DNA of 64,000 nt, taken from Yuukianura sp. NJ FZ-2021. Taxonomy: Eukaryota. The translations under genes were made by a program, and so were the position numbers. The stretch spans positions 4,712,001 to 4,776,000 of the forward strand of contig CM102289.1 of NCBI GenBank assembly GCA_046563655.1, given 5' to 3'. The notes under the pieces are model-generated. The model was not told where the DNA came from. It ran no database searches and was given only the letters and a program-made list of their open reading frames with translations. Numbering within the stretch: position 1 is the stretch's first letter; each line of letters opens with the position of its first letter. Positions 23,621 to 56,591 of this stretch are shown here, in pieces.

Positions 23621-23639
23621 CTGCTACGCCTCGAATATA

Positions 23640-24512: not shown

Positions 24513-24755
24513 CAACGTGTCACACTAAAAACTGAACACCTTCAGTGTAAACAACTTGTTTATTTTTGAAACAAGGGTATTCTATTGTATTCTACATGAG
24601 GGTATTTCTAAAGCTAATTTTGTAAAAAATTCGGTAAAACGTTTTGCAAAAAGTTGTTACGAGGAGTTAGCAAATATCTCTCCATGTTTTGCAAATTTTG
24701 AACCGGTTGTGACGGGAATTATTTTGGGGTGTTGAGGTTTTAATTTGACACGCTG
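24513..24755. mobile_element. Tc1/mariner-type MITE, copy 2 (inverted relative to copy 1)
   Basis: TA|CAACGTGTC...GACACGCTG|TA; shares AAATATCTCTCCATGTTTTG and AAAAACTGAACAC with the reverse complement of copy 1. Confidence 0.75.
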
Positions 24756-25661
24756 TATATATATAATACGAATTTTTCCATTAACCAAGATAACCCAACC
24801 CCAAAGGAGGAAAAGGAACTTTTCGTTTCGTTACCTCGTTATTGGAAATCGCTTTAGTTTTTAAAATCTAAGAATTATTTTATGATGTTAAGGACAAGCA
24901 TTGTTGATTTTGCATCTAGTGAATGACACTGTTTTTTTTATGTTTTAAACATTTAAACATATATATTTTAGTGACAACATTTAGAACAAGTGTTATTGCT
25001 GAAGTATAACGTGAACCGTGAAATACTAAACCGTTCTACTCAAGGTGGGTAAACAAGCAGATTGTTGATTACTACAAGAGGTTATTCATTAACTCGACGT
25101 TTTTTAATTTTGTTAAATTATTTGCAAAACTTGCTTCGCCATGCCTTTCTATGGTAATGATTTGTATGTAGTCTAATGGGAATTGGTTCAAAATTGGTTC
25201 AAAAAGTTGTTTTGATTCAGGGGGCGGCAAAAATGCCTTAGCGACCAAAACTGATTCTTTATTTGTTTACAATTTCACTCACAGTGACATCACTCCGAGT
25301 GAAAATACAGGTTCAACCGAGTTTTTAAGCTATTTTTAAGTTTGTGGCGAAAGTATTGAGACTAAAATGATGAAAATTTTGAACAACACTGTAAATGAGT
25401 GAACTCGGAGTGAAAAAAATCCCATAGCAACTCGGTTTTGAAAAAATAATTTTCAGGGACCGTACCTATAAGTATTCTATTTACCTTGGTTTTGACTCAA
25501 TTTTTTATAAACGTCGGAGGTATTGAATAACCTCTTGCAGCATTGCAATTGGTTGCAATAGCAACCTTGGTTCTACTAGGAAAAGTAAGCAAAGGAAAAA
25601 AGTATAAATTGAGCTTTGGGTAATTCTTTTTTCAGTTCAACATAAAAGTCCAGAGGTTAAA

Positions 25662-33291: not shown

Positions 33292-35207
33292 CTAATACTT
33301 TGGCGCTTCATACTGAATGATTACGACAGAGAACGTGAGGATCAATGCACAGACCTAAATTAAACATACAAAATTCTGTTTTTTTTTCTTTCCAAATTGA
33401 AATTACTATCAATATCAATACAAGCTTAAGTATAACGATTGTTCTTACAGTTCCCAGAAACGACGAGTCGAGGCTCATGAACCCCAATGGTTTGATGGCC
33501 AAGTTGTCTGTGGATACTTCGTACAATAGCATCATTAGATCACTCTCTTGAAATAGCACAAAATTTTTCCGAACAATGATCCAGTTGTGAAAAATTGTTT
33601 GGACCTAGAGAGATTTGTGTAAAGGTTAAGTTAATTAGTTAATGTAGAATATAAACTTAATTAACGTAAATTTGTTATTATTGTAAGATTTTTTTTGTTT
33701 CACCCACTTTGGCTTTGAACCATGCGGCGCATATCAAGAATAGTAATGGGATCATCACAAAGCTGACGGTGGCGAATTCTGCCAAGGCGCTGATAGGCTG
33801 AATGACTTCAGGAATGCATTTCATCAGAGCCGGAATACTGCCAAATATGAAGCCACATACTATCATACCAGTGGAGTTGTTCATGAGGTCAACCAGCTTC
33901 CGAAACTTTCTTAGTTCTTGTACTCCCTTGTTAAATTGAATTAAATAAATTGAGTTAAATAAGTTTTAAAGTATTTGTAAGGTGATACAGCCTATAAAAA
34001 CAAATGGTTATGAACTTGCTTCATATGCAGTCATAGTTTTTGCCTTGGCTTCCAAATGTACTGCGGAGCGATGTATTTGGACCATCAGGACGAGCATGAA
34101 CGTTTCACCAGCAGATCTCAATGCCGTTAGAACGAGTTGCGAATGAATTCCAAAGACAAATCCAAGATGGCGCCCATACTCTTTCCATGCATCAGCATCT
34201 AATGCATCCAGAAAAAGTAAGGGGCGACCCCATGCTGCCATTTCATCATAGTATGACTCCAATTTCCAAGAAGATTTTTGTACCAAACGGAGAACTTCTA
34301 TACCAACACGAAGAGCCATCATTGTTGAAATTACAATGAAAACGTTACGTTTTCCCTAGAAAATACAAATATTCACAAGATTATAATCAGAAAATGTAAA
34401 AATATAATTGACCAATGGTAAACCGGTCGTATACAAAATTAGGAAAGATAGGGCTCCATTAGCGGAGTAGGTTGACGTGTGGAAGCGGGGATCTTGGAAA
34501 TATTGAGTCGCTTTCGACAAATGCTGCCGACTGCAGAAGGGGTCAGGTAAACAATGCCAAAGCACAAAGTAATTTTTTGGTGCATATATTACATAATGCG
34601 ATGTACAATAGTTTGTGTGTACGATATAGGACATAGTAATGTATAAAATTTAGTTAACAAAACCTTATGTTTTGTTACATTTTTGGTTGGGGCAGTTCCA
34701 AGCGACGCTTTAACCGACTCTACTTCACAATAGTTGACAAGATCCACAAAATGGTTTCCATTCCGCCAGAAAGAAACGAATATGCAAATAAGTTCAAAAG
34801 CGAATCCAACAACGTCTGCTTTGAAAAAATAATTCATCTGCGGACTAATATTTGGCAGCTTTTGCTTCGAATTTATGTATCGGGCCCAGCCGTTGATACT
34901 GATGCATACTATGACAATGATATAAACATTCACAACCTATGAAAAAAAAAAGCCTTTCATTAATAAACATAAAACTTTTTGAGCCAATTTTAGTCGTTTT
35001 TTAAATGATTTGGTCTATTTTAAAGTCTAACTGTCCATAGAATAGGAAAAACGTCTTTGGCTGCCTTTTTACCTTTTGAATACGGCGAGATGTAACTTCC
35101 CAAGCCTTTGTGTTTGGGTTAAACGTGAGTGTTGATGGACAAATGCCAAAGCGATTCCAGAATTCGAAGTATGTCACAAAGCAGTCTGACATGCTTGCGT
35201 TTAACAT
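33292..35207 (-). CDS. Gustatory receptor-like 7TM chemoreceptor (multi-exon)
   Basis: Hydrophobic exons; C-terminal AIKPLGFMSLDSSFLGT, an intron, then VCALILTFSVVIIQY, matching the GR TYxxxxxQF-type TM7 motif. Confidence 0.8.
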
Positions 35208-36016
35208 TTTGAAAATTTACTGTCGACAGTTCTGCAGGAACAGCTTTAAATATCGAAGACTAATAATTAGTTTTACTTTTAAAGCAACTCCCAGGTTTAT
35301 AACACCAGTATACCTGGTAAACTAACTTGCAAAGTTACCAGAAATGGTTCAGAGACTTATGCGAGCAAAAATTTCGCATCAACTAATCCTTTTGTGTATT
35401 TTTTTTAATTTGCAAAATGAATTTAGTCTTCTGCTGGATCATAAGAATGTTTATTTTAATTTCTTTTCTCAACCATAAGAAAACAGTTTTCAACCAACTG
35501 TTGCATGAAAAATCATGCAAGCTTGAAAGTGTACACAAATTCAAATTTTATTGGAATTGGACAAACATCGCAACATAATGGAAAGGTTTAATATCAGAAT
35601 TCAATTTTTTTCTTTTAAAAAAAATACAACTGCTCTTGAAAAAAAGTTCTTCGAATATTGTGAATTATATGTCAACTTGGCCTGCAATTTTGCCATTGGA
35701 TTTGGGGGTTCATGAGCTCGTCAATATGAATATTAATACGAATACAAATAGAATGATAGAAACGATCAGTGAAAACTAAAAAAAGTTTTTGATGCTATAT
35801 AGTTACTTATGCCCGTTATGCCCTTCCGCAGCAGAACAAAATATTTAATCGACAAACGGATTGCATGGTTTCTGGATACCCAGGAACTTACGTTCACACC
35901 TACAAATTGTTCCTAAATAGTTGTAACTATTGCTCATATGTTTGCCCTAAGAAAGTATCCTCTGCCAGTTAAAAAACATAGCATAAACAAAGGTTATATA
36001 GAATGCTACTATTCCC

Positions 36017-38077
36017 TTAACCTCGTGATTTGAATTGAGAAGGTCGGCGTAATGCGTAGAGGTCATGTTTCGGTGGGGTCAAAATGAACCCTGACCTGGG
36101 ACCAATGTCAGGTTTCGGTTGATTCGGGTCGAGAGTAAATGAAAACTGTTGAAGAATTCCGACGAAGAACAGGAAGTATTCTTGGAGAGCCAAATTTTGA
36201 GCTGGACAAGTTCTTCTGCCAACGAAAAACGGAATGAGACGCTCGTCCCTGCGAAACTTTCCGAATGAATCGATAAATCGTTCGGGTCGAAAGGTGTGCG
36301 GGTCTCCCCAGTACTGTGGATCATGATGGATATGGTATAGGTTATTAAGGAAAAACGTTCCTTTTGGGAATGAGTAACCGCCAAATTCAAAATCTTCGAT
36401 TGGAGCATGGAAAAGTCCGAACGGAGTAATGGTTGACTTGCGCATCACTTCGGCCATGGTAGCCTCCACATACGGCAGCCTACAACACAAACAACAAATA
36501 TCATCCACAGTAATCTAACTTTGCAAGGTCAAGGTTGATTGAGCTTATTACTCTAACATTTACGGTCAATCAAAACACCTTGCTCAAGGTCATCCTTGAT
36601 ACTAATTAATATAAATATGAAAAAGAAATTCGTTGACCTCTGTCGATCCTCTGCACAGGGCATGTGATTTTCTAAAACAGTGTCAATTTCACAGTGAATT
36701 TTCTTTTGGACTTCAGGCCACATCGCTAGGAAAAGAAACGTCCAACCCAATGTTGAGCTCAACGTGTCTGATCCGGCAAAGAACATGTCCAGGACAGTGT
36801 AGTGAACGTTTTTCACTGAAAAAAATTCCAATGCGTCAAAATTTGACTTCAGTTGTTTACGACGCATACCCAGGAAGGCATAATCTATCAAGCTTACGTC
36901 CTCTTTGTTGAAAAAACTGAGACTGTGGGTTTGTTGTGGAGTAGACTTTGCCGAGACCACAATCAACAAAGTCTCTATGATTAGTTGGATCGTAAGTGGC
37001 GATGTGCTTGTCCATAATTTCTCGCACAAGATCTTCTGGAGCTTCAAAGTATTCCATTCCTTGTGCATAACCTGAAAAACCAGGCAGTAGTTTTGCCAAC
37101 CAGGGGAGGAAAGACGCAATTCCAACAAGATTTTGCGACGCCAAACCTCTGTTTACGGAAAAAATCAAAACAAAACTCTTGTTTAAAAAAATATTACGAA
37201 GTTCAAAAGAGTTTTCTACGGACTCTGAAAGGATGTTAGCAACTTTTCGTTTGAGCGGGTCCTCAATGTTGTACTTCTCTCCAGTGAATATTTCCCAGAG
37301 GGCGTTGATCACTGCGATTTCGAGGACCGGCTTTAAATCAACAGGTTTTCCCACGTTCTTCCTGTTGTACAAAAAGCGAAAACTTAGAAGCGTACATGAC
37401 TGAAGAACATTTCAGTTATTATTTTAAATTGTTACCCAATGAATTGCGTGCACTGAGTCACTTGTTCAAGGATGGATGCCTCCATGCTCTTTGTACCGAA
37501 ACCAAACTCCCTCAGACATCGCATCATGAACCGTCGTACTTCTGACCAGTCATTGCCCTCCAGTAAACCGATTCCTAAAAAAAATGGTCAAATAGGCAAA
37601 TAGTGGTTCTATTTGAAGGACGTACCGTAGTATCCCCTCTGTTGAAAAACTTCCAATTGGGCTCGTCCTGTCATCACGTCCAATTTGTAAAGTTCCTTTA
37701 TGGTTTCAAAGTCATTCACAAAAACAACACTGCAAAGCGACGAAAAACAGAATGAATTTTTCAGATTACATATAAATATGAAATGAAGCTTACGGATATT
37801 TCCCTAGCTGAAGTGTAAAAATATTTCCAAACTTTGGAATCAGGCTGGTAACTGTAAGACAAGGAACTTTTCCTAGGAACGGTAAGTATCCAAATATTGG
37901 CAATCCAATTGGCCCTGAAATCAACACAAAACAGAAAATTAGAAAGTGACGCTTTTATTTTTAATTTATATGAGCAGTACCTGGCGGAAGATTTTTGTTG
38001 TTTCGTTTTTGACACCTTTGGAAAAAGCATCTTACTAAAGTTAGTGTTACTAAGAACAAAACCAGTTCGACGTACAT
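36017..38077 (-). CDS. Cytochrome P450, CYP2-clan-like, copy A (apparently intact)
   Basis: Anchor MYVELVLFLV, LPPGPIGLPIFG, I-helix DMFFAGSDT, EVMR (ExxR), FRPERF, heme motif PFFVGRRTCPA. Confidence 0.92.
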
Positions 38078-38377
38078 ATTGACACTGCGAAACTAAATAG
38101 TTGGAAGTTTGCCAAATCTTTATCCAAAGTTGTCTTTTCAAGTTCGTATTTAATTCTGCTGGAAAAAATATACTTTCAATTTCCTTTTATGCTCGTCATT
38201 CTGCACTTGCAAATGCAGCAGTAATTACTGAAATCAGATAAGTTCTTATTCCATAGTAGAGCGGATACGCTTGACGAAGACGATAATCACTTTTCACAAC
38301 ATGCACTTATGATCTCCCGTCCATAATTTGAATACGTCAGTCTTCATGGATCGACAAGTTCTGCCAACTCTTGAAAA

Positions 38378-39932
38378 CTAGGGAACGAAGCTGCGGTAAA
38401 GAACCATTTTCTCATCAACTTCGATTGGCATGTCGGTATCACCAGCAGGCACAAACATCACAGAGCCTCTGCTTAAGGCAACGTTATTCGCCCCAAAACG
38501 TCCTTTCCCCTCCAGCACAAGGCAGACGGAGCAACTTCGAGAAGTTGGCAAATGGAAAGATTCACTTTTCTGAAAAACAGAAACAATTCAATCTTAATCA
38601 TGGCCACTTAAACTTTAATCAAAGCGTACTTAAATAGAAAGCTTACTTCAAACAACTCCACTGCAAATTCATCAACTGGAGGTTCATAAAGAAATCTCCC
38701 TGGTTCAATTTGTTTAGCCTTCATGGTCCATTCCTTTCCAGTATCAAATGTCAACATGGTCGTCAGCACATCTACGTCCTTGAACTTTGGAGTTAGCCCT
38801 GCTCTGACGACGTTATCCGAATTGGCCATACATTCCATGCAGTCTGCAAATGAAAAAAAAGAATTCGGATTTAATCAAAAATGAAAAACCGAGTGAAGTT
38901 TTTGCAATGAATTCTTACCACCATCCAAGTAAGCATGAGGTTCATTTGCAGGAAGAAAAATCGCTTCCCCTGGACGAAGCAGAATGTGCTGAAGGAAGAA
39001 GACACCGAAGACTCCTACATCGCCGGGAAACTGTTGATGGAGACGGGAGATAAGTTCGTGTTCTGGTACAGAGTCGCCACGAGCTACTAAGGTTGTAACT
39101 TTGGCAGCAATTTCATCAGCATCTGTCTTCATCAATCGTGTGAATACCTCCTGCAGATCCTTCTTCGATTCCAGTGCAGCACCCGCCACTAAGGCTCCCA
39201 GTTCCGGAACATCTAAAGATGAATAAAGGTAACATTAACATTACAAATTGAAACTCCTGAATTCCTGACCTCATTAAATGATTGATTTTACCACGGATTA
39301 GTTGCTTGATTTCCTCCAAAGTACGAAATCCACAAAGTACTTCGAACGGTGAAACTGCAATGGCCATTTCAGGTTTATGATTGTCATCTGGATAGTTGGC
39401 AGGGTCTAAATAAAAACAGATAGCTTTAATAAATTACACACTAAATATAAATAAGTATCATGACGAGTTATAATTTGTAACAGATTTGTAGTGCGAAGCA
39501 AACACAACAGATCGAGTCAGTTCGAGTAAGGTTTGCAACAAAGCCTTTCTCAAATCTCAAGTGTGCTGAAAAATTTCCTCATAATAGACATGGCCTACCT
39601 CGTTCATGTAAAATCCGAGCAAGACTTTTGTCTGGATGGGCCTGGATGCTCAGTGCCTTTTGAACACTGAGTACTTTGAACAGAAACGGTAAGCTTGGTC
39701 CGAACTTGGACAAAGTTTGACTTCCTAAAACATCGGGATTGGCGCTTATGTAATCGTTGAGAGGTTGTCCATTTGGTAAGTAGCAAGGACCAGACGGATG
39801 AGCACCCATCCATAGTTCTGCATACGGTGTACTGTTACATGTCGGTTCTATTTTCGAAGTCAGTTGAGCAACTAGTGAATCCAAGCCCACTCTACCCCAT
39901 GGATAATTCTTGATTGATGGTCTAAGCAACAT
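38378..39932 (-). CDS. MPI: Mannose-6-phosphate isomerase (type I PMI), copy A (apparently intact)
   Basis: [88 protein letters not shown]. Confidence 0.95.
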
Positions 39933-40344
39933 CTTGTCTCCTTTACGAATTCGTTTAATTAATTATTGATTTAGGTTTGGTTAGGTTACTGTTCCTATGC
40001 AACTAATTTTCCATGTGTCTGTGTCAGTGTCACTGTCACTGATATCGTTTGTTTTGTCCCGGTATGGATGGGATGGACTATTCCTCCGATTCCTACGTAA
40101 AGTTTTGTAAGCAAGACAATTCCGAGGATTATTCACCTTTCTACAACGCAATTTATACCTAGGTACTACACGGCGGTCGTAATCCCCGGACATGTTTGAC
40201 GTTTTCGCTCAGGATTGTCCCGTATCGGACACTTTTCGACATTGTTTTTATGAAATGTCTGAATTCTGAAATATCAGACGAAAACACACAACGCGGTTTG
40301 CACATGAGCCACTGAGCCAGGCGCAGTATTTACTAACGCCAGTG

Positions 40345-40662
40345 CCCCAAAGTGTGTTCTAGCCCCAAAATAGCCCCAAAGTGTGTTCTAGCCCCAAAAT
40401 AGCCCCAAAGTGTGTTCTAGCCCCAAAATAGCCCCAAAGTGTGTTCTAGCCCCAAAGTGTGTTCTAGCCCCAAAATAGCCCCAAAGTTTGTGTCATCCCC
40501 AAAATGTGATCTAGCCCCAAAATAGCCCCAAAGTTGGTGCCAGCCCCAAAATAGCCCCAAAGTTGGTGACAGCCCCAAAATAGCCCCAAACTTGGTGCCA
40601 GCCCCAAAATAGCCCCAAACTTGGTGCCAGCCCCAAAATAGCCCCAAAATGTGTTTTGGCCC
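40345..40662. repeat. 29-bp minisatellite (AGCCCCAAAATAGCCCCAAAGTGTGTTCT and variants)
   Basis: About 11 tandem units beginning exactly where homology between the duplicated blocks ends. Confidence 0.95.
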
Positions 40663-40859
40663 CTAAGTAGCACAAAACTAACTGACATCACTAAAACAGC
40701 CTTAAGCCGAATTTAAGTTCAACACTTTTTATTCTTGAGCACTACTCAAAACCAAAATTCAACTTAAGAGCTGAAATATTTCCAGCTAAAACTGACGTTG
40801 TTGTTTAAAGATTTTGAGTGTAACGTAGACCTTGTAAAAAGTGTTCACCTACACGTACC

Positions 40860-41130
40860 ACCCCTGGGTCTTATGTTTTAGTGCAAATATTCCTCAAAAC
40901 GTAACGTACGGACGTGTATACTAAGTATAAACAGTCCTCTCAGTACACTGTAGCCATTGTATGAGTCTCCAGCATACAACAAGGTAGGGCGACGCTCACG
41001 GGTTGAACATTGGTCTTCTGGAGGCAGTTCGCAAATGAAACAACTTAGACCCGCCGGACACAATACTGTGGAACAAAGAGATGAGATACCGTTTAAATTC
41101 GTTTCAAGCTGCGCAACTTCGCTCAAAATT
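40860..41130. mobile_element. Fragments of the Helentron/DINE-like family seen at 55364-56195, head-to-tail
   Basis: ACAAGGTAGGGC...GGGTTGA.CAT.GGTCTTCTGGAGG near 40979 matches 55366; GG.CTTATGTTT.AGTG..AA...ACGGACG near 40867 matches ~56078. Confidence 0.6.
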
Positions 41131-41580
41131 TAAAGAATTTCTTGAGAAAGCAAATTTGAACCATGCCATACACTGTTTACATGTTTACATGTTTAAGTCC
41201 AACAACAAACCGAATGGCCAATTTTCCTAAAAAGTTAACCAAAACTACCAGTTTCATTTTTTATTATCCTAACTGTTATTTACCTTGTATTATAAACTTC
41301 GATTTATCCTTACTGTCTTACTTCGACGCGAGAGAGAAATGAGGTGATACCTTCCTTCCACGCTTTTCCTAGACACCATTTTTATTTCCCCACATGCTTT
41401 GCTACTTACACGAGACAGTGTGAAGTACAACTTGCATGTTTTCTCAAATTAGATATGCACCGCCAGCTGATTTCCGTTACATAATTAACCACGGAAAGAC
41501 TTCCTATTCTTCTACTGCGAAAGCACGTAAAACACTGAGCTAAGTCGATTTTTTTCACTCACTACATGCCGCACTAGGCA

Positions 41581-42010
41581 CTTAATTTCATCCACTTTTG
41601 GGGCTGGGATTGAATGGAACTTAATTTCATCCACTTTTGGGGCTGGGATTGAATTTCATCCATTTTTGGGGCTGGACAGTAGTTTCTGCCATTTTTGGGG
41701 CTGGGATTGAATTTCATTCATTTTTGGGGCTGGACAGTAGTTTCTGCCATTTTTGGGGCTGGGATTGAATTTCATCCACTTTTGGGGCTGGGATTGAATG
41801 GAACTTAATTTCATCCACTTTTGGGGCTGGGATTGAATGGAACTTAATTTCATCCACTTTTGGGGCTGGGATTGAATTTCATCCATTTTTGGGGCTGGGA
41901 ATTAGTTTCAGCCACTTTTGGCCATTTTTGGGGATGGGGCTAACTTCAGGTTTTTGGGGATGGGGCTAACTTCAGATTTTTGGGGTTGGGGATAACTTCT
42001 TGCTCCCCCA
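41581..42010. repeat. 29/39-bp minisatellite with TTTTGGGGCTGG core
   Basis: Tandem units; the core is the reverse complement of the AGCCCCAAAA core at 40345-40662. Confidence 0.92.
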
Positions 42011-42233
42011 GTACGGTTAGCGACTGGACACAGTGCGATTAAAAAGTTTCAAAAGAGGTTTCTGCGGTATAGCGATATATATAGGTATATACATATATAT
42101 ATATAATACGTAATACGAAATCACACCTAACCTTTACAAAAGCACGTTTTCAAACAGTTAAGAAGCACATAACATAATTCGTTGAATTACGGACCATTTC
42201 GTCCTAGCGTGAGTTGTTTTCCAAAGCCAAGAC

Positions 42234-44143
42234 ATGGATTATATTCCAACTGAAGTAACGTTCATCTCAATCTCAATTATTAATTTGATAATTTAATAAC
42301 TACAAAACGATATGCTTAACAAACTGACATATGTTTCAGATACTGGATGATATCATTGGCTATTTGAGGAAGGTTGACGTTCCAAAACTGCGTCTTGTGA
42401 ATACCCGCTTCAATCTCGTAGCAACGCCATTTTTACAAAAATTGTTTCAAGTGGACTTTAGAGAGGACTCGGACATTGTGAAGTTTGTGGAAGTATTTGA
42501 AAACACATTTGTGCCCTTTGCGACGTTTGGATTTGGCGAATTGGTAACCGCGCAGCCGTTGGAGCAGTTTTGTGTCAAATGGGGAAACAATGTTAAATTC
42601 TGGAAAAATTGTGTGATTGATGAATCTGATATACGCAATACAAAGAGTTCGATTTCAATAAACACTCGAATCATATTGGAAAACTGCCTGAACTTAGAAG
42701 AAATCAAATACATTGTAGTGAGGGAGAAGGAAATGGGTGACGTTACTGGAATTCCTGTACCCCGAGATCTGAAGACCACAAAGCTCATGGAAGAAGACAC
42801 GCCTAGAAACGAAAATGTCTTTTTGGATCAAATTTTTCAAAAAACTCCACACCTCCGGTACGTTTCAATCGAAAATTGGGGAGATGCAACATTAACCGCA
42901 AACATTTTAAATCAACTGTACAAGATCAACGGAACTGTTCAAATAAGAAAGTTGGACATCTTACTTCAGCTTCCGCGGGTGGACATGGATTATGTCAAAA
43001 ATTTAGTTGCAATTTCAACTAAATTCACAATTCTAGACTTGGAATTGTGTATGACTTCAGAAGACCAGAATCCAGAACCACCACAAACCGGCGAAATTTT
43101 GTCAAAATGGATTGAAATGCTGGCGCCATTGCGCAAGCTTTCTCTGAAATATGCCGCGTGGGGGAATAACGGCGGTGATCTAATTTCAATTCCGCTCCAT
43201 TCCCTCGTTAATCTTCGATGTCTGACGGTTGAAAATCTACACACTCCTGTGCTTCCACACCTGGAGTTTCCAGTTCTCACAATGCTCGATTACATGTATG
43301 GTGGCGATAAGTTCAGTTTTTCTGGATGTGTATTTCCAAATGTGAAATTTGCAAGTATCGATTTAACACGTGAAGAAGAGTGTGCACAGTGGCCATTGGT
43401 GTTACCCAACGTTCAAGAATTGTATGTCTTGTCTCACACTTTGAAGGGAATTTTTCGATTTCCGAAGGTCAAGAAACTCCACATTCATGTTGAATTTGAT
43501 GTGTATGCTAGTAGTGATGCTCGTGAAATTCATATGAAACACTGCTGGAACAACCTCACACGAGATGCTAAATGCATGTCGAACGCAGAAATTTGTAATT
43601 TCGACCTGGAAGCTGAGAAGATTGATTCGATGGATTCCTTCGGGAATTTGCCTCGTACGTGCTTTACCTTACTAAACTAAAACTAAACTAGCTTTTTCAT
43701 GTCACTTAAGATAATTTTTCAATTCTTTGGAATCCTTTTTAAATAAGTTTAAGTTCCATTTAAACCACAACTTTGCTTTGTTTTTTTTTAGTGTTGACTC
43801 ATTTGAAGTTTTTCGGGGAAAACATTGAGTGCTGGAAGGCGGTTATTTACGCAAGTCGAACTGGTCAATTACGACGCCTTCAAAAGTTGGTATTCAGTGA
43901 AAATATGTATTTTAGCGAAGTAAGTAAAGCAAAACAAAAACTATAAAGGCATTGCGAAATTTCCAAGAAATAATCAAAATCTTACAAAAGTAATGATGAA
44001 GTATTCGAATATATAAATGAGGAAGTAATTTGCTATTTCAGAGAGATGAATTCCGCTCACAATTGATGAAGTACCACGACTCTACGATTATTTCGCAGAA
44101 TTATAAACTGCCACCGTTTCTCTGCAGCAAAGCTAGAAGTTAA
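42234..44143 (+). CDS. F-box protein with LRR-like C-terminal region (about 4 exons)
   Basis: Spliced N-terminus MDYIPTE|ILDDIIGYLRKVDVPKLRLVNTRFNLVA is F-box-like; LxxLxL repeats (LRKLSL, LRCLTV, VQELYV, VKKLHI). The 3' exons are inferred from splice phase. Confidence 0.8.
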
Positions 44144-44195
44144 ATATTTAACTTTTAGGCTAAAAGTTAAAAAAAATTAAATAAATTTAAATATA

Positions 44196-45082
44196 CTTCT
44201 TCAAAGACGATGTAAATAAGTATCGTCAGATGAATTATAGAGGGTTCCCGCGCAGGGTATTGTTGACCTAGACCTCTGATATTGTTGTAGGTCATTTGAG
44301 GTCAAACAATATTCGGAAACTTAGTCCTTCGTCGTCAAACATCCATCCCCGAAAACCACTTCCGAATCGGTCCGAATTGTAGAGAAAACGAGGACCTTGA
44401 CCTTTGACCCTGTTAGAGGTCACTCGAGGGTCGAAGTAAACTTGAGTGCCTCGCCTGTCCCCACCCGTTCAAATTTTTGCCGCGCTGCTTCAATTGTCTT
44501 CACCAAGTGGAAAGAAATATGCACCCACCAGCCTTACACGGAGTCCCCCTAGCGGCTGAAGTGGGACTAGCTTTTGGTTATGGTGGGGACCAATGTATCC
44601 AGCCGGTGGGAACACTGGGTGAGTACAATGAAAGTAGCGCAAAAATTTGAACTGGTGGGGACACGCGGGGTACTCAAGTTTACTTCAACCCACTCAAGGT
44701 CATAAAAATCGAATTCCCGTAAACCCCTTCCGAGTCTTTCCATCCGTTTCCGTATTGTAAATGGAGCATAACCTTGACCTTTGATACCATTAGAAGTCAC
44801 CTGAGGTGAATCCAACAACTGAGAGTTTTAGTAATCTGGTCAGCAGTTACGAATTAAAAAGAAACGATTAGAAATCGTTGCAGTGGTTATCGAGTTATAA
44901 GCATTACTGACGGACGGACAGACGCACGCACGGACGGACGGACCGACGCACGCACGGACGGACGGACAGACGGACGGACAGACAGACGGACGGACAGACA
45001 GACGGACGGACGGACAGACGGACGGACAGACTGACGGACGGACGGACAATACGATCCCTATAAGTATCTGACGATCCTTAAT
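44196..45082 (-). mobile_element. Non-autonomous Helentron/DINE-1-like element, family 1 copy 1
   Basis: Subterminal inverted repeats AAGTATCGTCAGAT / ATCTGACGAT.CTT, (GGAC/AGAC)n microsatellite at ~44909-45047, homology to 45849-46468. Confidence 0.75.
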
Positions 45083-45848
45083 AAACCCTAAACTAAAAAA
45101 ACGTTCAAGTTAAAGAAATAAGTTAAATAAATTTTTTATGGTTTATTTAAATTTATTTAAGTTTTTTTTTACATAATTTAATTAATTTAAGTTAAGTTAA
45201 TTTAATTTAAGCTAAACTAAATTTTGTATTTCAAGATTTAAGGCGCCGAATGAGATGCATTCAAGGCGTGGGAAAAATTTAAAATTTTGAAACTTAACTA
45301 TCCGGGCTGGTTGGAGTAAACTTTAATAGTAATAATTGTAACCTCTCAGCTATTATAAAGTGGAATTAGGTTAACCGGGAGATACAATTACCCTATTTTC
45401 TCGCAGATAATACGCTCTCGCGTATAATACGCACCCAGAAATTGTTGAAAACACTGAATAGCGAGAGAATGGAAAGTTTGACGCTAAAAATTTCCTTCCT
45501 TAACCAGGCTTCCAAAATTGCGATGTTAATTTCTACGTATTTAACGTTTAAGTTTTGACAACGAATGTAAAACCAAAAGTAATTAAAAAAAAAGCATTAT
45601 TCACAGCAGAACTCCTAAACGAATCCCTTGCTGTAAGTAAGATATCATCATTCCGAAATTCTAATCCAATATCAATATCTTCACAGGACTGTTATCTTTG
45701 GCGCCAAAAATGGTTTTGGTACGCAATTTCGGCATTTAAAGCGCCACATGCGAAAAATGCGTGGCTAACAATGCGATTTTTGTCTCCATTTAATTATGGC
45801 AGTTTTAAATGAAAATAATAAGTATTGATTAAAGTAAGATTAAATAAA

Positions 45849-46468
45849 CTTCTTGCAAAGACGATGTAAATAAGTATCGTCAGATCAGAGAATTATAGAA
45901 AGTTCCCGCGCAGGATATTGTTGACCTAGACTTCTGATATTGTTAGAGGTCACTTGAGGTCAAACAACGTTCGGTATATTAATCCTCGCGCCGTCAAACA
46001 TCCATCCTCGGAAACCACTTCCGAATCGGTCCATCCGTTTCCGAATTGTAGAGAAAAGGATGACCTTTAGCTTTGACCCTGTTAGAGGTCACTCGCGCGC
46101 GTAGCATGAGCGACGCCATTTTGCAACTTGCAGCGTCTATATCTCTAGAACCGTAGGTCAAAGGTCAACATCGCCGACAGAAAAGTTGTTCCTCTCATTG
46201 AGATGAACAACTTTTGTAGAGACCATTTTTCCAAATTCTGTCGAAAATGTACTTGACCTTGACCTTTGACCCGGAGGTTGGCCACTTCCGGTCAAACCGA
46301 AAACGACTTGTTCATCCCTGGACCATGTGCAGTTCATCTGTGAAGACAGATTGAAAATCGGTCCAGCGGTTCCAGAAATATTGTGGCTAGTATAGTCGGA
46401 CGGACAGACGGACAGACGGACAGACGGACGGCCATTACGATCCCTATAAGTATCTGACGATACTTAAT
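45849..46468 (-). mobile_element. Non-autonomous Helentron/DINE-1-like element, family 1 copy 2
   Basis: Same termini (CAAAGACGATGTAAATAAGTATCGTCAGAT ... TACGATCCCTATAAGTATCTGACGATACTTAA) and GGAC/AGAC microsatellite. Confidence 0.75.
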
Positions 46469-48424
46469 AAATTGTAAATGAAAACTGTTGTAGAATTCCG
46501 ACGAAGAACAGGAAGTATTCTTGGAGAGCCAAATTTTGAGCGGGACAAGTTCTTCTGCCAATGAAAAACGGAATGAGATGCTCGTCCCTCCGAAACTTCC
46601 CGAATGGATCGATAAATCGTTCAGGTCGAAAGGTGTGTGGGTCTCCCCAGTACTGCGGATCATGATGGATATGGTATAAGTTATTAAGGAAAAACGTTCC
46701 TTTTGGAAATGAGTAACCGCCAAATTCAAAATCTTCGATTGGAGCATGGAAAAGTCCGAACGGAGTAATGGTTGACTTGCGCATCACTTCGGCCATGGTA
46801 GCCTCCACATACGGCAGCCTACAACACAAACAACAAATATCATCCACAGTGACCTAACTTTGCAAGGTCAAGGTTGCTTGATTGAACTTACTACTCTAAC
46901 ATTTACGGTCAATCAAAACACCTTGCTCAAGGTCATCCTTGACACTAATTAATATAAATATGAAAAAGAAATTAGTTGACCTCTGTCGATCCTCTGCACA
47001 GGGCATGTGATTTTGTAAAACAGTGTCAATTTCACAGTGAATTTTCTTTTGGACTTCAGGCCACATCGCTAGGAAAAGAAATGTCCAACCCAATGTTGAG
47101 CTTAACGTGTCTGATCCAGCAAAGAACATGTCCAGGACAGTGTAGTGAACGTTTTTCACTGAAAAAAAATTCCAATGCGTCAAAATTTGACTTCAGGAGG
47201 TTGCGTGCGACGACGCCAACGCAGGAAGGCAAAATTAACCTTACGCCCTCTTTGTTGAAAAAACTGAGACTGTGGGTTTGTCGTGGAGTAGACTTTCCCG
47301 AGACCGCAATCAACAAAGTCTCTATGATTAGTTGGATCGTAAGTGGCGATATGCTTGTCCATAATTTCTCGCACAAGATCTTCTGGAGCTTCAAAGTATT
47401 CCATTCCCTGTGCATAACCTGAAAAACCAGGCAGCAGTTTTGCCAACCAGGGGAGGAAAGACGCAATTCCGACAAGATTTTGTGAAGCTAAACCTCTGTT
47501 TACAGAAGAAATCAAAACAAAACTCTTGTTTAAAAATACGACGAAATTCAAAAGATATGTTTACGGACTCTGAAAGGATGTGAGCAACTTTTCGCTTGAG
47601 CGGGTCCTCAATGTTGTACTTCTCTCCAGTGAATATTTCCCAGAGGGCATTGATCACCGCGATTTCAAGGGCCGGCTTCAAATCAACAGGTTTTCCCACG
47701 TTCTTCCTGTTGTACAAAAAGCGAACTTAGAAGCGTGCATGACTGAAGAAGAACATTTCAGTTATTATTTTAAATTGTTACCCAATGAATTGCGTGCACT
47801 GAGTCACTTGTTCAAGGATGGATGCCTCCATGCTCTTTGTACCGAAACCAAACTCCCTCAGACATCGCATCATAAACCGTCGTACTTCTGACCAGTCATT
47901 GCCCTCCAGTAAACCGATTCCTAAAAAAAGATGATCAAATAGGCAAATAGTGCTTCAATTTGAAGGACGTACCGTAGTATCCCCTCTGTTCAAAAACTTC
48001 CAATTGGGCTCGTCCTGTCATCACGTCCAATTTGTAAAGTTCCTTTATAGGTTCAAAGTCATTCACAAAAACAACACTGCAAAGCGACAAAAAACAGAAT
48101 GAATTTTTCAGATTACATATAAATATGAAATGCAGCTTACGGATATTTCCCTAGCTGAAGTGTAAAAATATTTCCAAACTTTGGAATCAGGCTGGTAACT
48201 GTAAGACAAGGAACTTTTCCTAGGAACGGTAAGTATCCAAATATTGGCAATCCAATTGGCCCTGAAATCAACACAAAACAGAAAATTAGAAAGTGACGCT
48301 TTTATTTTTAATTTATATGAGCAGTACCTGGCGGAAGATTTTTGTTGTTTCGTTTTTGACACCTTTGGAAAAAGCATCTTACTAAAGTTAGTGTTACTAA
48401 GAACAAAACCAGTTCGACGTACAT
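46464..48424 (-). pseudogene. Cytochrome P450 copy B, 3'-truncated
   Basis: Near-identical to copy A, but homology stops at 46474; reads ...QQFSFTIY* instead of ...QQFSFTLDPNQPKPDIGPRSGFILTPPKH..., losing about 38 C-terminal residues. Confidence 0.8.
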
Positions 48425-48724
48425 ATTGACACTGCGAAACTAAATAGTTGGAAGTTTGCCAAATCTTTATCCAAAGTTGTCTTTTCAAGTTCGTATTTAA
48501 TTCTGCTGGAAAAAATATACTTTCAATTTCCTTTTATGCTCGTCATTCTGCACTTGCAAATGCAGCAGTAATTACTGAAATCAGATAAGTTCTTATTCCA
48601 TAGTAGAGCGGATACGCTTGACGAAGACGATAATCACTTTTCACAACATGCACTTATGATCTCCCGTCCATAATCTGAATCCGTCAGTCTTCATGGATCG
48701 ACAAGTTCTGCCAACTCTTGAAAA

Positions 48725-50281
48725 CTAGGGAACGAAGCTGCGGTAAAGAACCATTTTCTCGTCAACTTCGATTGGCATGTCGGTATCACCAGCAGGCACA
48801 AACATCACAGAGCCTCTGCTTAAGGCAACGTTATCCGCCCCAAAACGTCCTTTCCCCTCCAGCACAAGGCAGACCGAGCAACTTCGAGCAGTTGGCAAAT
48901 GGAAAGATTCAGTTTTCTGAAAAACAGAAACAATTCAATCTTAATCATCGCCACTAAATTAAACTTTAATCAGAGTTTACTTAAATAGAAAGCTTACTTC
49001 AAACAACTCCACAGCAAATTCATCAACTGGAGGTTCATAAAGAAATCTCCCTGGTTCAATTTGTTTAGCCTTCATGGTCCATTCCTTCCCAGTATCAAAT
49101 GTCAACATGGTCGTCAGCACATCTACGTCCTTGAACTTTGGGGTTAGCCCTGCTCTGACGACGTTATCCGAATTGGCCATACATTCCATGCAGTCTGCAA
49201 ATGAAAAAAAGAATTCGGATAATTCACTTAACCAAAAATGAAAAACCGAGTGAAGTTTTTGCAATGAATTCTTACCACCATCCAAGTAAGCATGAGGTTC
49301 ATTTGCAGGAAGAAAAATCGCTTCCCCTGGACGAAGCAGAATGTGTTGAAGGAAGAAAACACTGAAGACTCCTACATCGCCGGGAAACTGTTGATGGAGA
49401 CGGGAGATAAGTTCGTGTTCTGGTACAGAGTCGCCACGGGCTACTCAGGTTGTAACTTTGGCAGCAATTTCATCAGCATCTGTCTTCATCAATCGTGTAA
49501 ATACCTCCTGCAGATCCTTCTTCGATTCCAGTGCAGCACCTGCCACTAAGGCTCCCAGTTCCGGAACATCTAAAGATGAATAAAGGTAATATTAACATTA
49601 CATATTGAAACTCCTGCGATTGAATGATTGATTTTACCACGGATGAGTTGCTTTATCTCCTCCAAACTACGGAATCCGCAAAGTACTTCGAACGGTGACA
49701 CTGCAATGGCCATTTCAGGTTTATGATTGTCATCTGGATAGTTGGCAGGGTCTAAATAAAACCAGACAGCTTTAGGAATTGACAAACCTAATATAAATAG
49801 TATCATAAGTTATAATTTGTAATAGATTTGTAGTACGAAACTTAGTTTAAAACACGACAGATCGAGTCAGTTCGAGTAAGGTTTACAATTACAACAATAC
49901 CTTTCTTAAGTGTGCTTAAAAATTTTCCCATAATAGACATGGCCTACCTCGTTCATGTAAAATCCGAGCAAGACTTTTGTCTGGATGGGCCTGGATGCTC
50001 AGTGCCTTTTGCACACTGAGTACTTTGAACAGAAACGGTAAGCTTGGTCCGAACTTGGACAAAGTTCGACTTCCTAAAACATCGGGTTTGGCGCTTATGT
50101 AATCGTTGAGAGGTTGTCCATTTGGTAAGTAGCAAGGACCAGATGGATGAGCACCCATCCATAGTTCCGCGTACGGTGTACTGTTACATGTCGGTTCTAT
50201 TTTCGAAGTCAGTTGAGCAACTAGTGAATCCAAGCCCACTCTACCCCATGGATAATTCTTGATTGATGGTCTAAGCAACAT
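48725..50281 (-). pseudogene. MPI: Mannose-6-phosphate isomerase copy B with in-frame nonsense codon
   Basis: Copy A has AAA GTT ACA ACC TTA GTA (KVTTLV); copy B has AAA GTT ACA ACC TGA GTA (TCA at 49445-49447 on the + strand). Confidence 0.85.
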
Positions 50282-50747
50282 CTTGTCTCCTTTAGGAATT
50301 CGTTTAATTAATTACTGATTTAGATTTCGTTAGGTTACTGTTCCTATGCAACTAGTAATTGTCCATGTGTCTGTGTCAGTGTCACTCTTCTGTCACTGAT
50401 ATTGTTTGTTTTGTCCCGACATGGATGGGTTGGCCTATTCCTCCGATACCTACGTAAAGTTTTGTAAGCAAGACAATTCCGAGGATTATTCACCTACCAC
50501 ACCGCGATTTATACCTACAAGGCGGTCCTAATTCGCGGATATGTTTGACGTTTTCGCTTAGGATTGTCCCGTTTCGGACACTTTTCGACATTGTTTTTCT
50601 GAAATGTCTGAAATCTGAAATATCAAACGAAAACACACAACGCGGTTTGCACATGAGCCAGGCGCAGTATTTACTAACGCCAGTGATTTTATGTCTTTTA
50701 AAATGTTGCAAATAAGGAAAAAAAAACATAATTTTTTGAAGGGTTTG

Positions 50748-50959
50748 AGGGTCTGACTATTCCTGATTCCGAGGCTTCTGAAAAAAAATCAGAGGATTCG
50801 GTTCTGTTTCTGAGGAATGAGGATTCCAACAAAAAATTCAAAAATTAATAAAGGGCTCTGAGAAATTCTCTGAAAACTCTGAGGATTTTCTTTTTGTAAT
50901 CCTCAGAATCCTCTGAATTTTTTTTTCGGAATCCTTAGTATCAGGAATAGTCAGACCCT
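50748..50959. mobile_element. MITE with AGGGTCTGACTATTCCTGAT terminal inverted repeats
   Basis: AGGGTCTGACTATTCCTGAT ... ATCAGGAATAGTCAGACCCT with internal GAGGATTC/GAATCCTC subrepeats. Confidence 0.75.
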
Positions 50960-51095
50960 TCAAAAAATACACCTTTGGCTTGGTTTCTTCTTTCTTGTTT
51001 TAAATTTTTTCGTTTTTCTATAATTAATTATAAGTTACTACATTCCACTCCAAGATTATAATAGCAATCACTTTTAGTTGATTTACGTCCTCAAC

Positions 51096-52144
51096 ATGAC
51101 AATGTCAACTAGAGAGAGAGCATTTGAGATGGGGATAGAGAGCATGTTGAACAGAGTAAACGAGATGAAGACCTCACTCAACAATCTAATTCTTAGGATT
51201 GAGTTGGATCACGAAAACTTTAGTTACCCGGATGCTCTGGATTCTTTTGCAGTGATTTCTGGCCAGGAAAGTATTCCTACAAACAAAACATTCACCTGCT
51301 AGGTTTATTGATGGATAAATGTTTGTTGTTGTTTTAGATGCATACGGTGATGCAGTTACTAAAATCTGACAAACTACCGTCATTGAAGGAACTCATTGCT
51401 ATTCCACTCTTGCTCAATCCTGACAAGGACACTGACCTTCAAACTTTGACAGAAGGAAGGCTGGAGTGCTTTAATCACGCAGTAATAAGAGTTACTTTAT
51501 TTTCGTGCTTAAGCAATAGGCGAATCCAAAGAAGATGAGAATGGTTTGTTTGTAATCTTTTTAGGTAGTTCCAGACTATTTGAGAACAAAGCCTGACCCA
51601 ACGGTTGAAAAGGAACATGACCGAGTGGAGCTACGTGGTAGCACTCAGAACCCGGACACCGTTAATGTAAGCTGAAAAGACTCAGAAATGGAATACGTCA
51701 TTGAATTACAATTTGTATATTCTTCCCTGTAATCCCACGAGTACTCACTGCGCTACTTGTACCTTTATTACGCAGAAACAACTGGCAAACTTCGCAAAAA
51801 TGGCCGATCACATGCTGGCAATCATTGAAACAAACTCGAGAGAGTGGGACGCGTCTTCTGAGAGGACTGCTGCTCCTCCAACAAGTTCGCAAGCAGATAC
51901 TCTTGAACTTGTAACTTCCGTTTACAATGGAAAGGCTTTTAGATTTGCTCCACCAACCGCACCAATGCAACGGCAAGTGCCACCATCTGCCTCGGGGGCT
52001 TCTCCACAGGGTCAAGGCAAGTTCTCAACAATATTTCACCAACGAATACGATCAATGTCGTGATTTATTTCTTCTGTTGGTTTAGTGAAAGGTGCTGGAG
52101 GAACTATTAAAACTACAATTAAACCAGCGGGAAGGAACTATTAA
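51096..52144 (+). CDS. MED8: Mediator complex subunit 8 (5 exons)
   Basis: [45 protein letters not shown], C-terminal IKTTIK. Confidence 0.92.
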
Positions 52145-52549
52145 GAAATCAAATTGAGAACAATTTTAAGTTGTTATTAATTTTTGTTTACATTGTACTG
52201 ATAAATTCATTCTCCTTCGTACGTTTTTCGTGTCGCTTTCATTTATTTTTTTCTGTTTGGTCTATATAAAAAATTTTTCCTATATAAAATACTATAGATA
52301 ACTCTTCCTATATTTGTTTTTTTTTATTGATTTTTCGGATTGAATTACTAACAACACTTATTACCGAATTAATCCATATAGTATCTTATGCGATAACGCA
52401 GTTTAGCTCGATACTCGAATGGTTTTGCGTTCAGCTTGTTTGAGGAGACTTTTACTACCAATTTCAAAATCGCAGGTTTTCTGAGGATTAGGCGTCGTTT
52501 GAACTAATCTAAGCCTCAATTGAGACTCAAAACTACCGTATGGTAGTTT

Positions 52550-52671
52550 GCTAACAAGAATTAGCCGGGTCTGACTTTTCCCCTGACACGTGTTTTTTCT
52601 CATTGAGTAAAGGAGAAAAAACACTTGTCAGAGGAAAAGTCAGACCCGTCTCATTCTTGTTAGCAAACTAC
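52550..52671. mobile_element. Palindromic MITE-like element of the GGGTCTGACT family
   Basis: GGTAGTTTGCTAACAAGAAT...GGGTCTGACTTTTCC.CTGACA.GTGTTTTTTCTC mirrored by GAGAAAAAACAC.TGTCAG.GGAAAAGTCAGACCC...ATTCTTGTTAGCAAACTACC; ends approximate. Confidence 0.75.
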
Positions 52672-52959
52672 CCTATGGTAGCCTAACAAAAATTTGACTA
52701 AAAGGAAAAGGATAAACAAACAAGCGAATGCGAATTAAACTGTTTGTTTTGTCGGTAAACGGAGGAAGGTCAGTTAGTTAAAGTTGTTTTTAGTTAATTG
52801 GTATCGTTCGTAGGAGTTTTGAACTAACAAGATCACTCAGGTCATAAAAGTGATTCGTTTCACCTAATTTGCAGTTGGAAATCATTAGTTCACTTCTTAC
52901 TCCATTTTCACTCGTGTTTATATTTTAAAAAGGTTGCTTTGGTTCTGTAATTTTGAGAA

Positions 52960-55363: not shown

Positions 55364-56195
55364 AAACAAGGTAGGGCAATGCTCAAGGGTTGAGCATAGG
55401 TCTTCTGGAGGGAGTTGACAATTGATGCGACTTAAACCGGCCTGCTCAAAATTGTAGAAGAACTGAGAAACCGTTTTCATGTAGCGGATGTACCAAAACG
55501 TCGCTCAAAATTTTCAGCGCGGATGTGAGGTCCTCTTTTGTGCATGCGTTGCACCAAAACTGGGTTGCCAATGGCATGCACTAAAATCATGCTCCAGTTT
55601 TGCGCCCCAAAATATTTGCAATAAATTGATGTTCTTAACTTGTTGAGCAGGATGCACATAATGTATTATCGGTGTTGCCGTGGCAATGTACTTATTAGCG
55701 AAAAGAGCGTGAACCAAACGACGTCAAAATAATGATACCGAAATTTAGCTTTATGCATTATAAAAATTTCTAGTAAATGCAACTTTGACCCCTGTTGTGC
55801 ACCATTCACATATTAAACATTTAAGCCGGATTTTCTACCCTCTGATCAGTCTTAATTTAACAACGTGATTAAACATACTGCCAGAAAATGACCAGATCAA
55901 AATTCCGTTGTTTATAAATATTTTGAGTGCAATCGAAACCAAAACAGTTTTGCGGAGCCACGATACTGCGGGTACATAAAGTAGCCGCCCACTTCAACGT
56001 TGTTAATCTAACAGTTTGAGTGCAATGTAGACCTATTGAAAACTCTTGAGCCAAACATAACCCCCCGACTGCGATGGGGCTTATGTTTCAGTGGAAAAGG
56101 TACTAAAAAACGTTACGGACGGACGGACAGACGGACAAAGTCGTATCAATAGTCTTCTTCAGCACGTCGTAGACGTGCGTCTCCAGAAGACTAAA
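55364..56195 (-). mobile_element. Non-autonomous Helentron/DINE-1-like element, family 2
   Basis: SubTIRs GTCTTCTGGAG / CTCCAGAAGAC, terminal hairpin ATGCTCAA-GGG-TTGAGCAT, (GGAC)n microsatellite, hairpin GCACGTC-GTA-GACGTGC, A/T-rich ends. Confidence 0.75.
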
Positions 56196-56591
56196 AGTAA
56201 TGTAAATGAAAATACAAAACTCTGCACCAATCTCCTAGGAAGAGATGATTCAATTTTAACCTATTAATGGCTAAGTATCGATGAATAAACGACACGCTAC
56301 TATATCGACGTGATCATGTTTCCTCTCAATCCGTAATGGATTACAATGGTGTCAGTAGTAAATTAATTGTTTATTGAAAAGGAATCAGAAACCAGTATAC
56401 ATGAATCGGAGCAAAGACAATCCATTAGACAATTGAAAGACAATGAATCAATCTGGAAAACAGGAAAATTTCCTAAAAGGAAGAGGACAGTGCTGGTAAT
56501 AGTAGTAAGTACCCTATTCGTAATGTTAATTACCATTCACGTGCAGCTTATTTTCAGTAAGATCAGTTGAAACGTGTAGGACAATCCTGGA

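Follow-up and report, generated by a model that had tools for sequence, protein, structure and literature searches.

A local duplication of cytochrome P450 and phosphomannose isomerase genes, with a different repeat at each inner junction, in Yuukianura sp. NJ FZ-2021

Results

A duplicated P450-MPI block with a repeat at each inner junction

We analysed 64,000 nucleotides from Yuukianura sp. NJ FZ-2021 (GCA_046563655.1, contig CM102289.1, positions 4,712,001 to 4,776,000; hereafter the window, with all positions counted from its first letter), in which a 4.2-kb block holding most of a cytochrome P450 gene and a complete phosphomannose isomerase (MPI) gene occurs twice in direct orientation, with an offset of 10.3 kb from start to start. 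The two copies enclose a 6.1-kb spacer (40345-46473) that carries an expressed gene for a predicted leucine-rich repeat (LRR) protein, two elements of the HINE type (E1 and E2) and a pair of inverted minisatellite arrays, and the MED8 gene follows on the right (Table 1). The extent of both copies in a blastn self-comparison agreed with that given in an earlier sequence-only reading of the window, but the description of the copies as near-identical was too strong, since the 4254 aligned columns show 94.36% identity, 154 mismatches and 39 gap openings. A global MAFFT alignment of the copies gave 3996 matches, 174 mismatches (101 transitions and 73 transversions) and 82 gap columns in 19 indels, which corresponds to 95.8% identity at aligned bases.

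Homology between the copies ends abruptly on both sides, with similarity stopping at the block edges, and no microhomology was seen at the junctions. On precise alignment neither inner breakpoint lies away from a repeat. At the left junction the end of copy 1 (...TACTAACGCCAGTG|) passes directly, from the first base after the copy, into a 29-bp minisatellite, as the sequence-only reading had it (11.1 copies at 40344-40671 by Tandem Repeats Finder, TRF). At the right junction, copy 2 begins (46474) 2-3 nt from the terminus of the HINE element E2 (46470/46471); a Helentron/DINE-like element had correctly been seen at this place, at a distance put too high at about 5 nt. The E2 terminus was located from the divergence of contigs that represent other genomic copies of the element and from the end of the similarity between 46397-46471 and 45011-45085. 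The outer flanks (35000-36134 and 50686-51100) gave no further copy in the window by blastn, consistent with the earlier description of them as single-copy.

One explanation for such a structure is an error of assembly, in which two haplotypes were laid in tandem or a false join was made within the high-copy HINE. Contigs from four sequencing runs (X1-X4) were compared with the window. In line with this explanation, no listed contig bridges the junction between spacer and copy 2 (46471|46474), and the short-read contigs of X1 and X2 mix both copies. However, the window contains zero N, the flanks differ on both sides of the copies, and copy 2 is joined directly to the end of a transposon, which is not how alleles would look; in addition, letters specific to copy 1 and letters specific to copy 2 are both present in runs from two studies. 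The junction between left flank and copy 1 is bridged by contigs of X1 and X3, and that between copy 2 and the right flank by X2. Word depth in X1 contigs was 210-344 over the copies and 132-227 in the flanks and spacer, so that the half depth named by the sequence-only reading as a sign of tandemly assembled haplotypes was not seen in this weak measure, which gives no copy number. We consider an assembly artefact very unlikely.

Divergence between the copies is uneven. It peaks at 39309-39500 (22 mismatches and 12 gap columns in 200 columns) and falls to 2 differences in 600 columns at 37719-38318 (48066-48665 in copy 2), whereas elsewhere the copies differ by 3-11%. The low-divergence stretch takes in the 5′ exons and the promoter region of the P450 and the intergenic DNA to just before the MPI stop (38378); it has the appearance of either a tract of recent conversion or regulatory DNA under strong constraint. 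More generally, the patchy divergence suggests gene conversion or uneven constraint.

Table 1. Features of the duplicated locus, with positions in the 64,000-nucleotide window.
Feature	Position	Strand	Description
Duplicated block, copy 1	36135..40344		4210 bp, direct orientation
Duplicated block, copy 2	46474..50685		4212 bp, direct orientation
P450 copy 1 (CYP2-clan cytochrome P450)	36017..38077	-	8 exons, 504 aa, intact
P450 copy 2	46464..48424	-	8 exon lengths and all splice sites kept; frame ends after codon 466 plus Ile-Tyr
MPI copy 1 (phosphomannose isomerase, type I)	38378..39932	-	5 exons, 376 aa, intact
MPI copy 2	48725..50281	-	Exon lengths and splice sites kept; in-frame TGA at codon 191 (+ strand 49445-49447)
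Foldback-type structure	40345..42005		Two inverted minisatellite arrays, about 900 bp between
Array 1	40344-40671		29-bp unit, 11.1 copies (TRF)
Array 2	41577-41999		29/39/26-bp units, inverted relative to array 1 (TRF)
Spacer gene	42331..43946	+	Coding exons 42331-43654 and 43792-43946, 492 codons
HINE E1	44190..45085	-	Older or more diverged; (GACG/GACA)n at 44909-45048; subterminal inverted repeats 44217-44231 and 45066-45080
HINE E2	45843..46471	-	Very high-copy family; subterminal inverted repeats 45871-45885 and 46452-46466; terminus 2-3 nt from copy 2
Right flank with MED8 gene	50686..52063	+	Single-copy in the window; MED8 start near 51096; head to head with MPI copy 2

An intact gene pair in copy 1 and a decaying pair in copy 2

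Pfam searches confirmed the gene content proposed by the sequence-only reading. The P450 matched the family p450 (PF00067, 1.1e-39 and 1.1e-18), and its assignment is upheld by the heme-binding FxxGxRxCxG loop, which reads FFVGRRTCPA in copy 1 and FFIGRRTCPA in copy 2. The MPI matched PMI_typeI_cat (PF20511, 6.7e-30) and PMI_typeI_hel (PF20512, 2.7e-15), as expected of a type I enzyme. The last exon of P450 copy 1 shares 63% identity with a protein of Folsomia candida that bears the name 'cytochrome P450 2C23' and 59% with one of Orchesella cincta called 'methyl farnesoate epoxidase'.

Run X4 behaves like an RNA assembly, with GT..AG joints, and its spliced contigs fit copy 1, with 0 other letters at the stretches that discriminate the copies. 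These contigs back 4 of 4 introns of MPI copy 1, and the P450 copy 1 introns at 37730-37793 and ~37361-37435 are likewise spliced joints. X4 cover of copy 2 is nearly absent and was weighed neither for nor against anything. A canonical 51-nt GT..AG intron (37575-37625) is required for an open P450 frame, yet it is retained in an X4 contig in which the neighbouring introns are spliced, and it is possibly an inefficiently spliced mini-intron. An X4 joint from 37729 to 48141, which skips 10,411 nucleotides, was considered as splicing between the copies and rejected because 37794-37913 is identical to 48141-48260 and its placement is a tie.

The last 118 coding bases plus stop of P450 copy 1 (36017-36134) fall outside the duplication, the left edge of which cuts codon 466. 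P450 copy 2 is without the 38 C-terminal residues, a part that holds a conserved GPRSGFIL.PPKH segment in the alignment with springtail relatives (P0003-P0007), and its stop codon (46464-46466) sits within the HINE terminus. At the in-frame TGA of MPI copy 2, an X3 contig over 49439-49446 agrees with the letters of the window. We conclude that copy 1 is the working pair and that copy 2, with its P450 ended at codon 466 and its MPI interrupted by the TGA, is now decaying.

Two candidate observations on copy 2 were dropped. Contigs of X1 and X2 carry C>A at 49446, which would turn the TGA into TTA and give an intact Leu allele of MPI copy 2; these contigs are paralog mosaics, however, in which real conversion and assembly path switching cannot be separated. 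Of the 30 deviating letters listed for copy 2 in run contigs, 28 are the copy-1 state, and a 1990-base X1 contig has the copy-1 state at 19 of its 44 discriminating sites (a 19:25 mosaic). An X2 contig that runs through copy 2, copy 1 and the right flank was likewise rejected as proof of gene conversion, because the final 32 bases are identical in the two copies and make a chimeric assembly path equally possible.

Coding differences point to long selection on copy 2

All 19 indels between the copies are intronic or intergenic, with none in exons, and mismatches occur at 103 of 1642 non-coding and 71 of 2528 exonic positions. Nei-Gojobori estimates for the P450 were dS 0.107 and dN 0.0116 (omega 0.109), and those for MPI were dS 0.082 and dN 0.0081 (omega 0.099). 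Differences at codon positions 1, 2 and 3 numbered 9, 3 and 31 in the P450 and 3, 4 and 21 in MPI. Replacements made up 12 of 43 coding differences in the P450 and 7 of 27 in MPI, whereas about two thirds would be expected had copy 2 been functionless from birth. Neutrality of copy 2 since birth was rejected for both genes (P = 3.6e-7 for the P450 and 4.1e-5 for MPI), and with the two genes pooled, neutrality of copy 2 for at least 20% of the time was also rejected (P < 0.05). When the 11 amino-acid differences outside the truncation were polarised with five relatives, 3 were derived in copy 1, 2 in copy 2 and 6 were ambiguous. These statistics indicate that purifying selection probably acted on both genes of copy 2 through most of the period after the divergence of the copies.

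The bias toward third positions and an omega of about 0.1 make it unlikely that the P450 of copy 2 was truncated from birth. The sequence-only reading had implied that the duplicating event itself created the truncated copy, an idea that fits neither the low omega nor the symmetric derived changes. Given that copy 2 appears to have been long under purifying selection, we interpret its edge on the HINE side as a later truncation in preference to the original breakpoint. A truncated P450 may be reconciled with selection in several ways, namely by a secondary deletion at the HINE terminus, by a template that was already diverged when it was copied, by selection acting via gene conversion or by a functional short form. 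The unique flanks of the window differ from the run contigs by 0-14 letters per 475-1230 bases; because this difference is small, an allelic template diverged by 4-6% seems unlikely and secondary truncation is favoured.

The spacer is a mosaic that includes HINE-type and foldback-type repeats

The spacer is a mosaic of at least four unrelated parts and not one inserted element. The two elements at its right end, E1 and E2, share their orientation and were aligned to each other. With up to 2 mismatches, the 15-bp subterminal inverted repeat (subTIR) TAAGTATCGTCAGAT and its complement have 4 matches in 64 kb (0.16 expected), two in E1 and two in E2. Since all of these lie in the spacer, chance is excluded for the adjacency of the repeat to the junction. 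The summed contig word depth over E2 (bins 45773-46906) was 19,000-26,000 in X1/X2, compared with a few hundred in most bins, and contigs from other genomic copies of E2 diverge from the window at 45839-45843 and 46467-46471.

On these and the following features we accept the right-hand element as HINE-type (HINE/DINE-1, a non-autonomous Helentron). The likeness to HINE/DINE-1, as described in passages of Thomas, Vadnagara and Pritham (2014, PMC4067079), extends to the 15-bp subTIRs, a palindrome near the end, a microsatellite and a very high copy number. In both E1 and E2 the palindrome has a 6-bp stem (GACGAT/ATCGTC) and a 10-nt loop about 20 nt from the end, with weak fold z-scores (-1.3 and -2.3), and one subTIR, at the end opposite this short palindrome, is itself palindromic. 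The internal (GACG/GACA)n microsatellite was found by TRF in both elements (at 46399-46429 in E2). The flanks of both are AT-rich, with no duplicated flank seen at either, which may agree with the T-rich insertion sites and lack of target-site duplication of HINEs. The subTIRs of E2 are set in from the two ends of the element by 5 nt (46466 to 46471) and about 28 nt (45843 to 45871); this arrangement is asymmetric as published but falls outside the distances given in the same passages for mite families (5′ end, 2-4 nt; 3′ end, 38-60 nt). Strand was assigned to the elements solely from this asymmetry. E1 also contains an internal inverted repeat absent in E2 (44428-44480/44639-44691; 53 nt, 91% complementary), which may be a nested small element.

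At the left end of the spacer lie two minisatellite arrays in inverted orientation. The motif AGCCCCAAAA occurs 10 times on the + strand (40361-40649) and 10 times on the - strand (41596-41896) and nowhere else in 64 kb, where 0.16 occurrences are expected. Its spacing is mostly 29 bp, with a range of 18-47 bp in array 1 and steps of 29 or 39 bp in array 2, and the complementarity of the inverted arms is 70-74%. Word depth is single-copy-like in the contigs that cover the left array and the middle (40619-41609). Part of the middle (40795-41197) is 65-73% similar, in three pieces, to 55365-56197 near a mitochondrial ribosomal protein S2 gene, and the two are probably members of an old unclassified repeat family. 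Scans of the window for tRNA genes and Rfam families gave 0 hits, so the small repeat at 40978 and 55365 is not a known RNA gene.

The arrangement recalls Foldback elements (Drosophila FB and similar elements with long terminal inverted repeats), in which inverted arrays of short tandem sub-repeats flank a unique middle. It seems to differ from them in that no target-site duplication was seen at 40344/42005, no matching outer termini were found and there is no transposase, and the structure may simply be a local inverted minisatellite. The inverted AGCCCCAAAA arrays (40345-42330) lie between divergent genes, MPI copy 1 on the left and the LRR gene on the right, and an X4 contig of MPI copy 1 RNA (39599-40373) extends 29 nt into array 1. 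The foldback pair might be a shared two-way promoter region for the two genes.

The spacer gene probably encodes a lineage-restricted LRR protein

The GT..AG intron of the spacer gene (43655-43791) is a spliced joint in X4, the contigs of which cover 42388-43654. The label of F-box gene, which the sequence-only reading had given it, was not supported by Pfam: neither the 450-aa frame nor the first 60 aa matched a family at E<=10, and the F-box profiles (PF00646/PF12937) were not detected. Its N-terminus has an LRLVNTRF-type motif that we take, by eye, to be F-box-like; Pfam did not confirm it. Nor did Pfam find an F-box in the relatives P0001 and P0002 or in the N-terminal exon of a related gene on a metagenome contig (L001); the relatives gave sub-threshold Pfam LRR hits. 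A word-indexed homolog search among proteins of near length found nothing, and an HMMER search over 1.84 billion representatives found 2 relatives (E 4.9e-17 and 3e-6), both of them unnamed single-member metagenome proteins.

Structure prediction pointed in the direction of LRR proteins. An AlphaFold2 model built from three sequences had a mean predicted local distance difference test (pLDDT) score of 60 and formed a regular solenoid of alternating strands and helices, with the N-terminal 38 residues, where an F-box would be expected, modelled at a pLDDT of about 30. Foldseek returned 53 matches at E<=0.001, and all were LRR proteins among the matches listed; the best included TIR1, COI1, D3 and FBXL2, but also internalins and NLRs, with TM scores of 0.3-0.46. 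A profile of the three relatives gave weak LRR matches to PDB sequences (E 0.011). Language-model neighbours were mostly F-box clusters (0.94 for the whole protein and 0.90 for the N-terminus alone), results that we treat as leads and not as tests. The predicted LRR solenoid is similar in size to that of the F-box/LRR substrate receptors of SCF ubiquitin ligases (FBXL type; TIR1, COI1, D3/MAX2 and FBXL2), which are among the best Foldseek matches, but the spacer protein differs from them in having no Pfam F-box at E<=10, and unrelated LRR proteins score equally well. We regard the spacer protein as a lineage-restricted LRR protein that may be F-box-like.

The related gene on L001 (849-2636) is 26-30% identical to the spacer gene. 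Its N-terminal exon carries an F-box-like motif, its LRRs are encoded by a long exon, and a short exon for the C-terminus ends in ...CWKAIIYAGRLGQLHRLQKL. This is the layout of the spacer gene, so the architecture of the family is conserved even at such low identity. Its neighbour on the contig is carboxylesterase-like (E 0.0062, below the Pfam cut-off), no MPI, MED8 or P450 is present on the contig, and neither the HINE nor the array repeat was found beside the gene at this one locus, which probably belongs to another species. The L001 gene is probably a distant paralog that is uninformative on synteny.

Discussion

Origin of the duplication

We lean, with modest confidence, toward the view that the locus is a fairly old local segmental duplication of non-homologous, repeat-associated origin, and that its edge on the HINE side was truncated later. 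In such a history, the 4.2-kb block (the P450 minus its last 38 codons and the complete MPI) would have been duplicated through repeat-associated breakage and rejoining without homology or through template switching. Copy 2 would then have been under selection for a long time before its decay, in which a deletion ending at the HINE terminus would have cut its P450, now with a stop supplied by the neighbouring transposon, and its MPI acquired an in-frame TGA. No repeat is common to the breakpoints of both copies, as the 4 subTIRs and the 20 array motifs are all inside the spacer, and the left flank of copy 1 and the right flank of copy 2 have neither the HINE nor the array motif. Non-allelic homologous recombination (NAHR) is therefore not supported.

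The sequence-only reading had instead proposed that one element-driven event, whether rolling-circle capture or a template switch, brought in the 6.1-kb spacer with its gene and simultaneously duplicated the 4.2 kb in the manner of a giant target-site duplication. The ends of the spacer do coincide with the ends of homology, and HINE-type ends are present in the spacer. However, the left end of the spacer is the minisatellite/foldback array and not a HINE end, and the four subTIRs pair into two small complete elements, so that no terminus pair encloses the spacer or either copy of the block. As the block lies outside every pair of HINE termini, rolling-circle (Helitron/Helentron) capture is argued against, and nothing indicates that E1 or E2 moved host DNA. 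Truncation at birth is opposed by the coding statistics. The proposal that an F-box gene was brought in finds no counterpart either, in that no donor copy or close paralog was found, although no whole-genome search for one was made, and the sole related locus is without either repeat. Of the earlier interpretation, then, the real duplication, the gene content, the repeat at each inner junction and the HINE type stand, while a single element-driven event is decidedly unlikely in view of the mosaic spacer and a block outside all termini.

A plain tandem duplication, in which the copies first lay side by side and successive insertions exactly at their junction then built the spacer, would invoke the commonest duplication route, and HINEs are very abundant in the genome as judged by contig word depth. 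On the other hand, the first insertion must have landed on the junction with single-base precision, a host gene that is expressed and contains an intron must have arrived at the same junction, and the P450 would still have been truncated from birth, against the coding statistics. We regard this history as very unlikely.

Several observations weigh against the older duplication with later truncation that we prefer. Neither the lost P450 end nor the left flank has left a trace in the spacer (best tblastn E 0.54, best blastn E 0.06), so the secondary deletion must be assumed and was not seen. Both inner edges coincide exactly with repeat ends, which also fits a single break-repair event. The sole related locus, L001, is uninformative on whether MPI lay beside MED8 or beside the spacer gene in the ancestral order, and the linkage of spacer to copy 2, across the junction that no listed contig bridges, rests on the assembly. 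Finally, the low omega could also arise from a template that had diverged beforehand or from indirect selection through gene conversion, of which 37719-38318 is a conversion-like tract.

We take a one-step alternative to be a serious rival, although we think it unlikely. In this alternative, the original order would have been P450-MPI-foldback arrays-LRR gene-HINEs-MED8, and a break at the HINE terminus would have been repaired with 4.2 kb copied from the nearby P450-MPI pair. Helentron enzymes are proposed to nick at the HINE terminus, copying would have halted at the hairpin-prone edge of the array, and the ends would have been joined without homology. One event would then account for the closeness of the HINE terminus to copy 2 (2-3 nt) as well as for the end of copy 1 at base 0 of the array. 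The spacer gene, moreover, is an ordinary gene, expressed and spliced, with only distant relatives, and the MPI copy 1 RNA contig enters array 1 as if the array were its native upstream region. Passages of PMC4067079 hypothesise an initial nick in the T run flanking the element. Against this, a P450 truncated at birth should have collected replacements, whereas its omega is 0.109 and 31 of its 43 differences are at third positions. Rescue of the model by a template about 4-6% diverged sits poorly with the small differences in the unique flanks, and microhomology is seen at neither junction. The full sequence of Helentron nicking at a HINE end, patching of the break with 4.2 kb from the neighbouring P450-MPI pair and a stop at the hairpin-forming foldback array is somewhat less likely again; if true, it would be a direct route to local gene duplication in springtails that does not involve capture. 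In a bolder variant of this history, the truncated P450 with its HINE-derived stop would be a functional shortened enzyme kept by selection.

Comparison with repeat-associated duplications in Drosophila

Whichever order of events applies, the locus is an ordinary repeat-associated local duplication of a type already described. According to passages of Yang et al. (2008, PLoS Genet, PMC2211543), 10 of 17 young Drosophila duplicates had repeats at or near their breakpoints (7 DNAREP1/DINE-1, 2 satellites and 1 simple repeat); in 5 of those 10 only one copy had the repeat, and identity between copies was lost near it. The mechanisms discussed there are NAHR, mobilisation of flanking DNA and preferential breakage at repeats. 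The present locus resembles these duplications in that introns and flanks were carried along, the breakpoints are abrupt and a DINE-1-type or satellite repeat lies at the breakpoints. It differs from what those passages describe in its springtail-like host, in having two different junction repeats with none common to the parental and the new copy, in the local position of the duplicate, 6 kb away, and in a repeat-side edge that seems younger than the divergence of the copies.

The locus offers a clean example of the copying of a detoxification-type P450 together with its neighbour in a springtail genome rich in Helentron-type repeats. It also gives reason for caution, because a transposon end beside the edge of a duplication is no proof that the transposon made the duplication. 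A small, testable puzzle is the truncated P450 copy with its clear signature of purifying selection; the rest of the finding is ordinary genome turnover.

MED8 and other repeats in the window

The gene in the right flank was identified as MED8 by Pfam (Med8, 7.7e-09 and 1.3e-06) and has spliced joints in X4. Just downstream of it lies a near-perfect palindrome (52533-52681) with 72-nt arms that are 90% complementary and separated by 5 nt. Elsewhere in the window, a tandem array at 18387-20039 has a period of about 231 bp and about 7 copies that are 80-93% alike. An inverted repeat at 22947-23148/23419-23620 has arms of 202 nt with 96% identity and about 270 bp between them, with weaker related inverted matches to 24760, and is probably a long-TIR (terminal inverted repeat) or foldback-type element.

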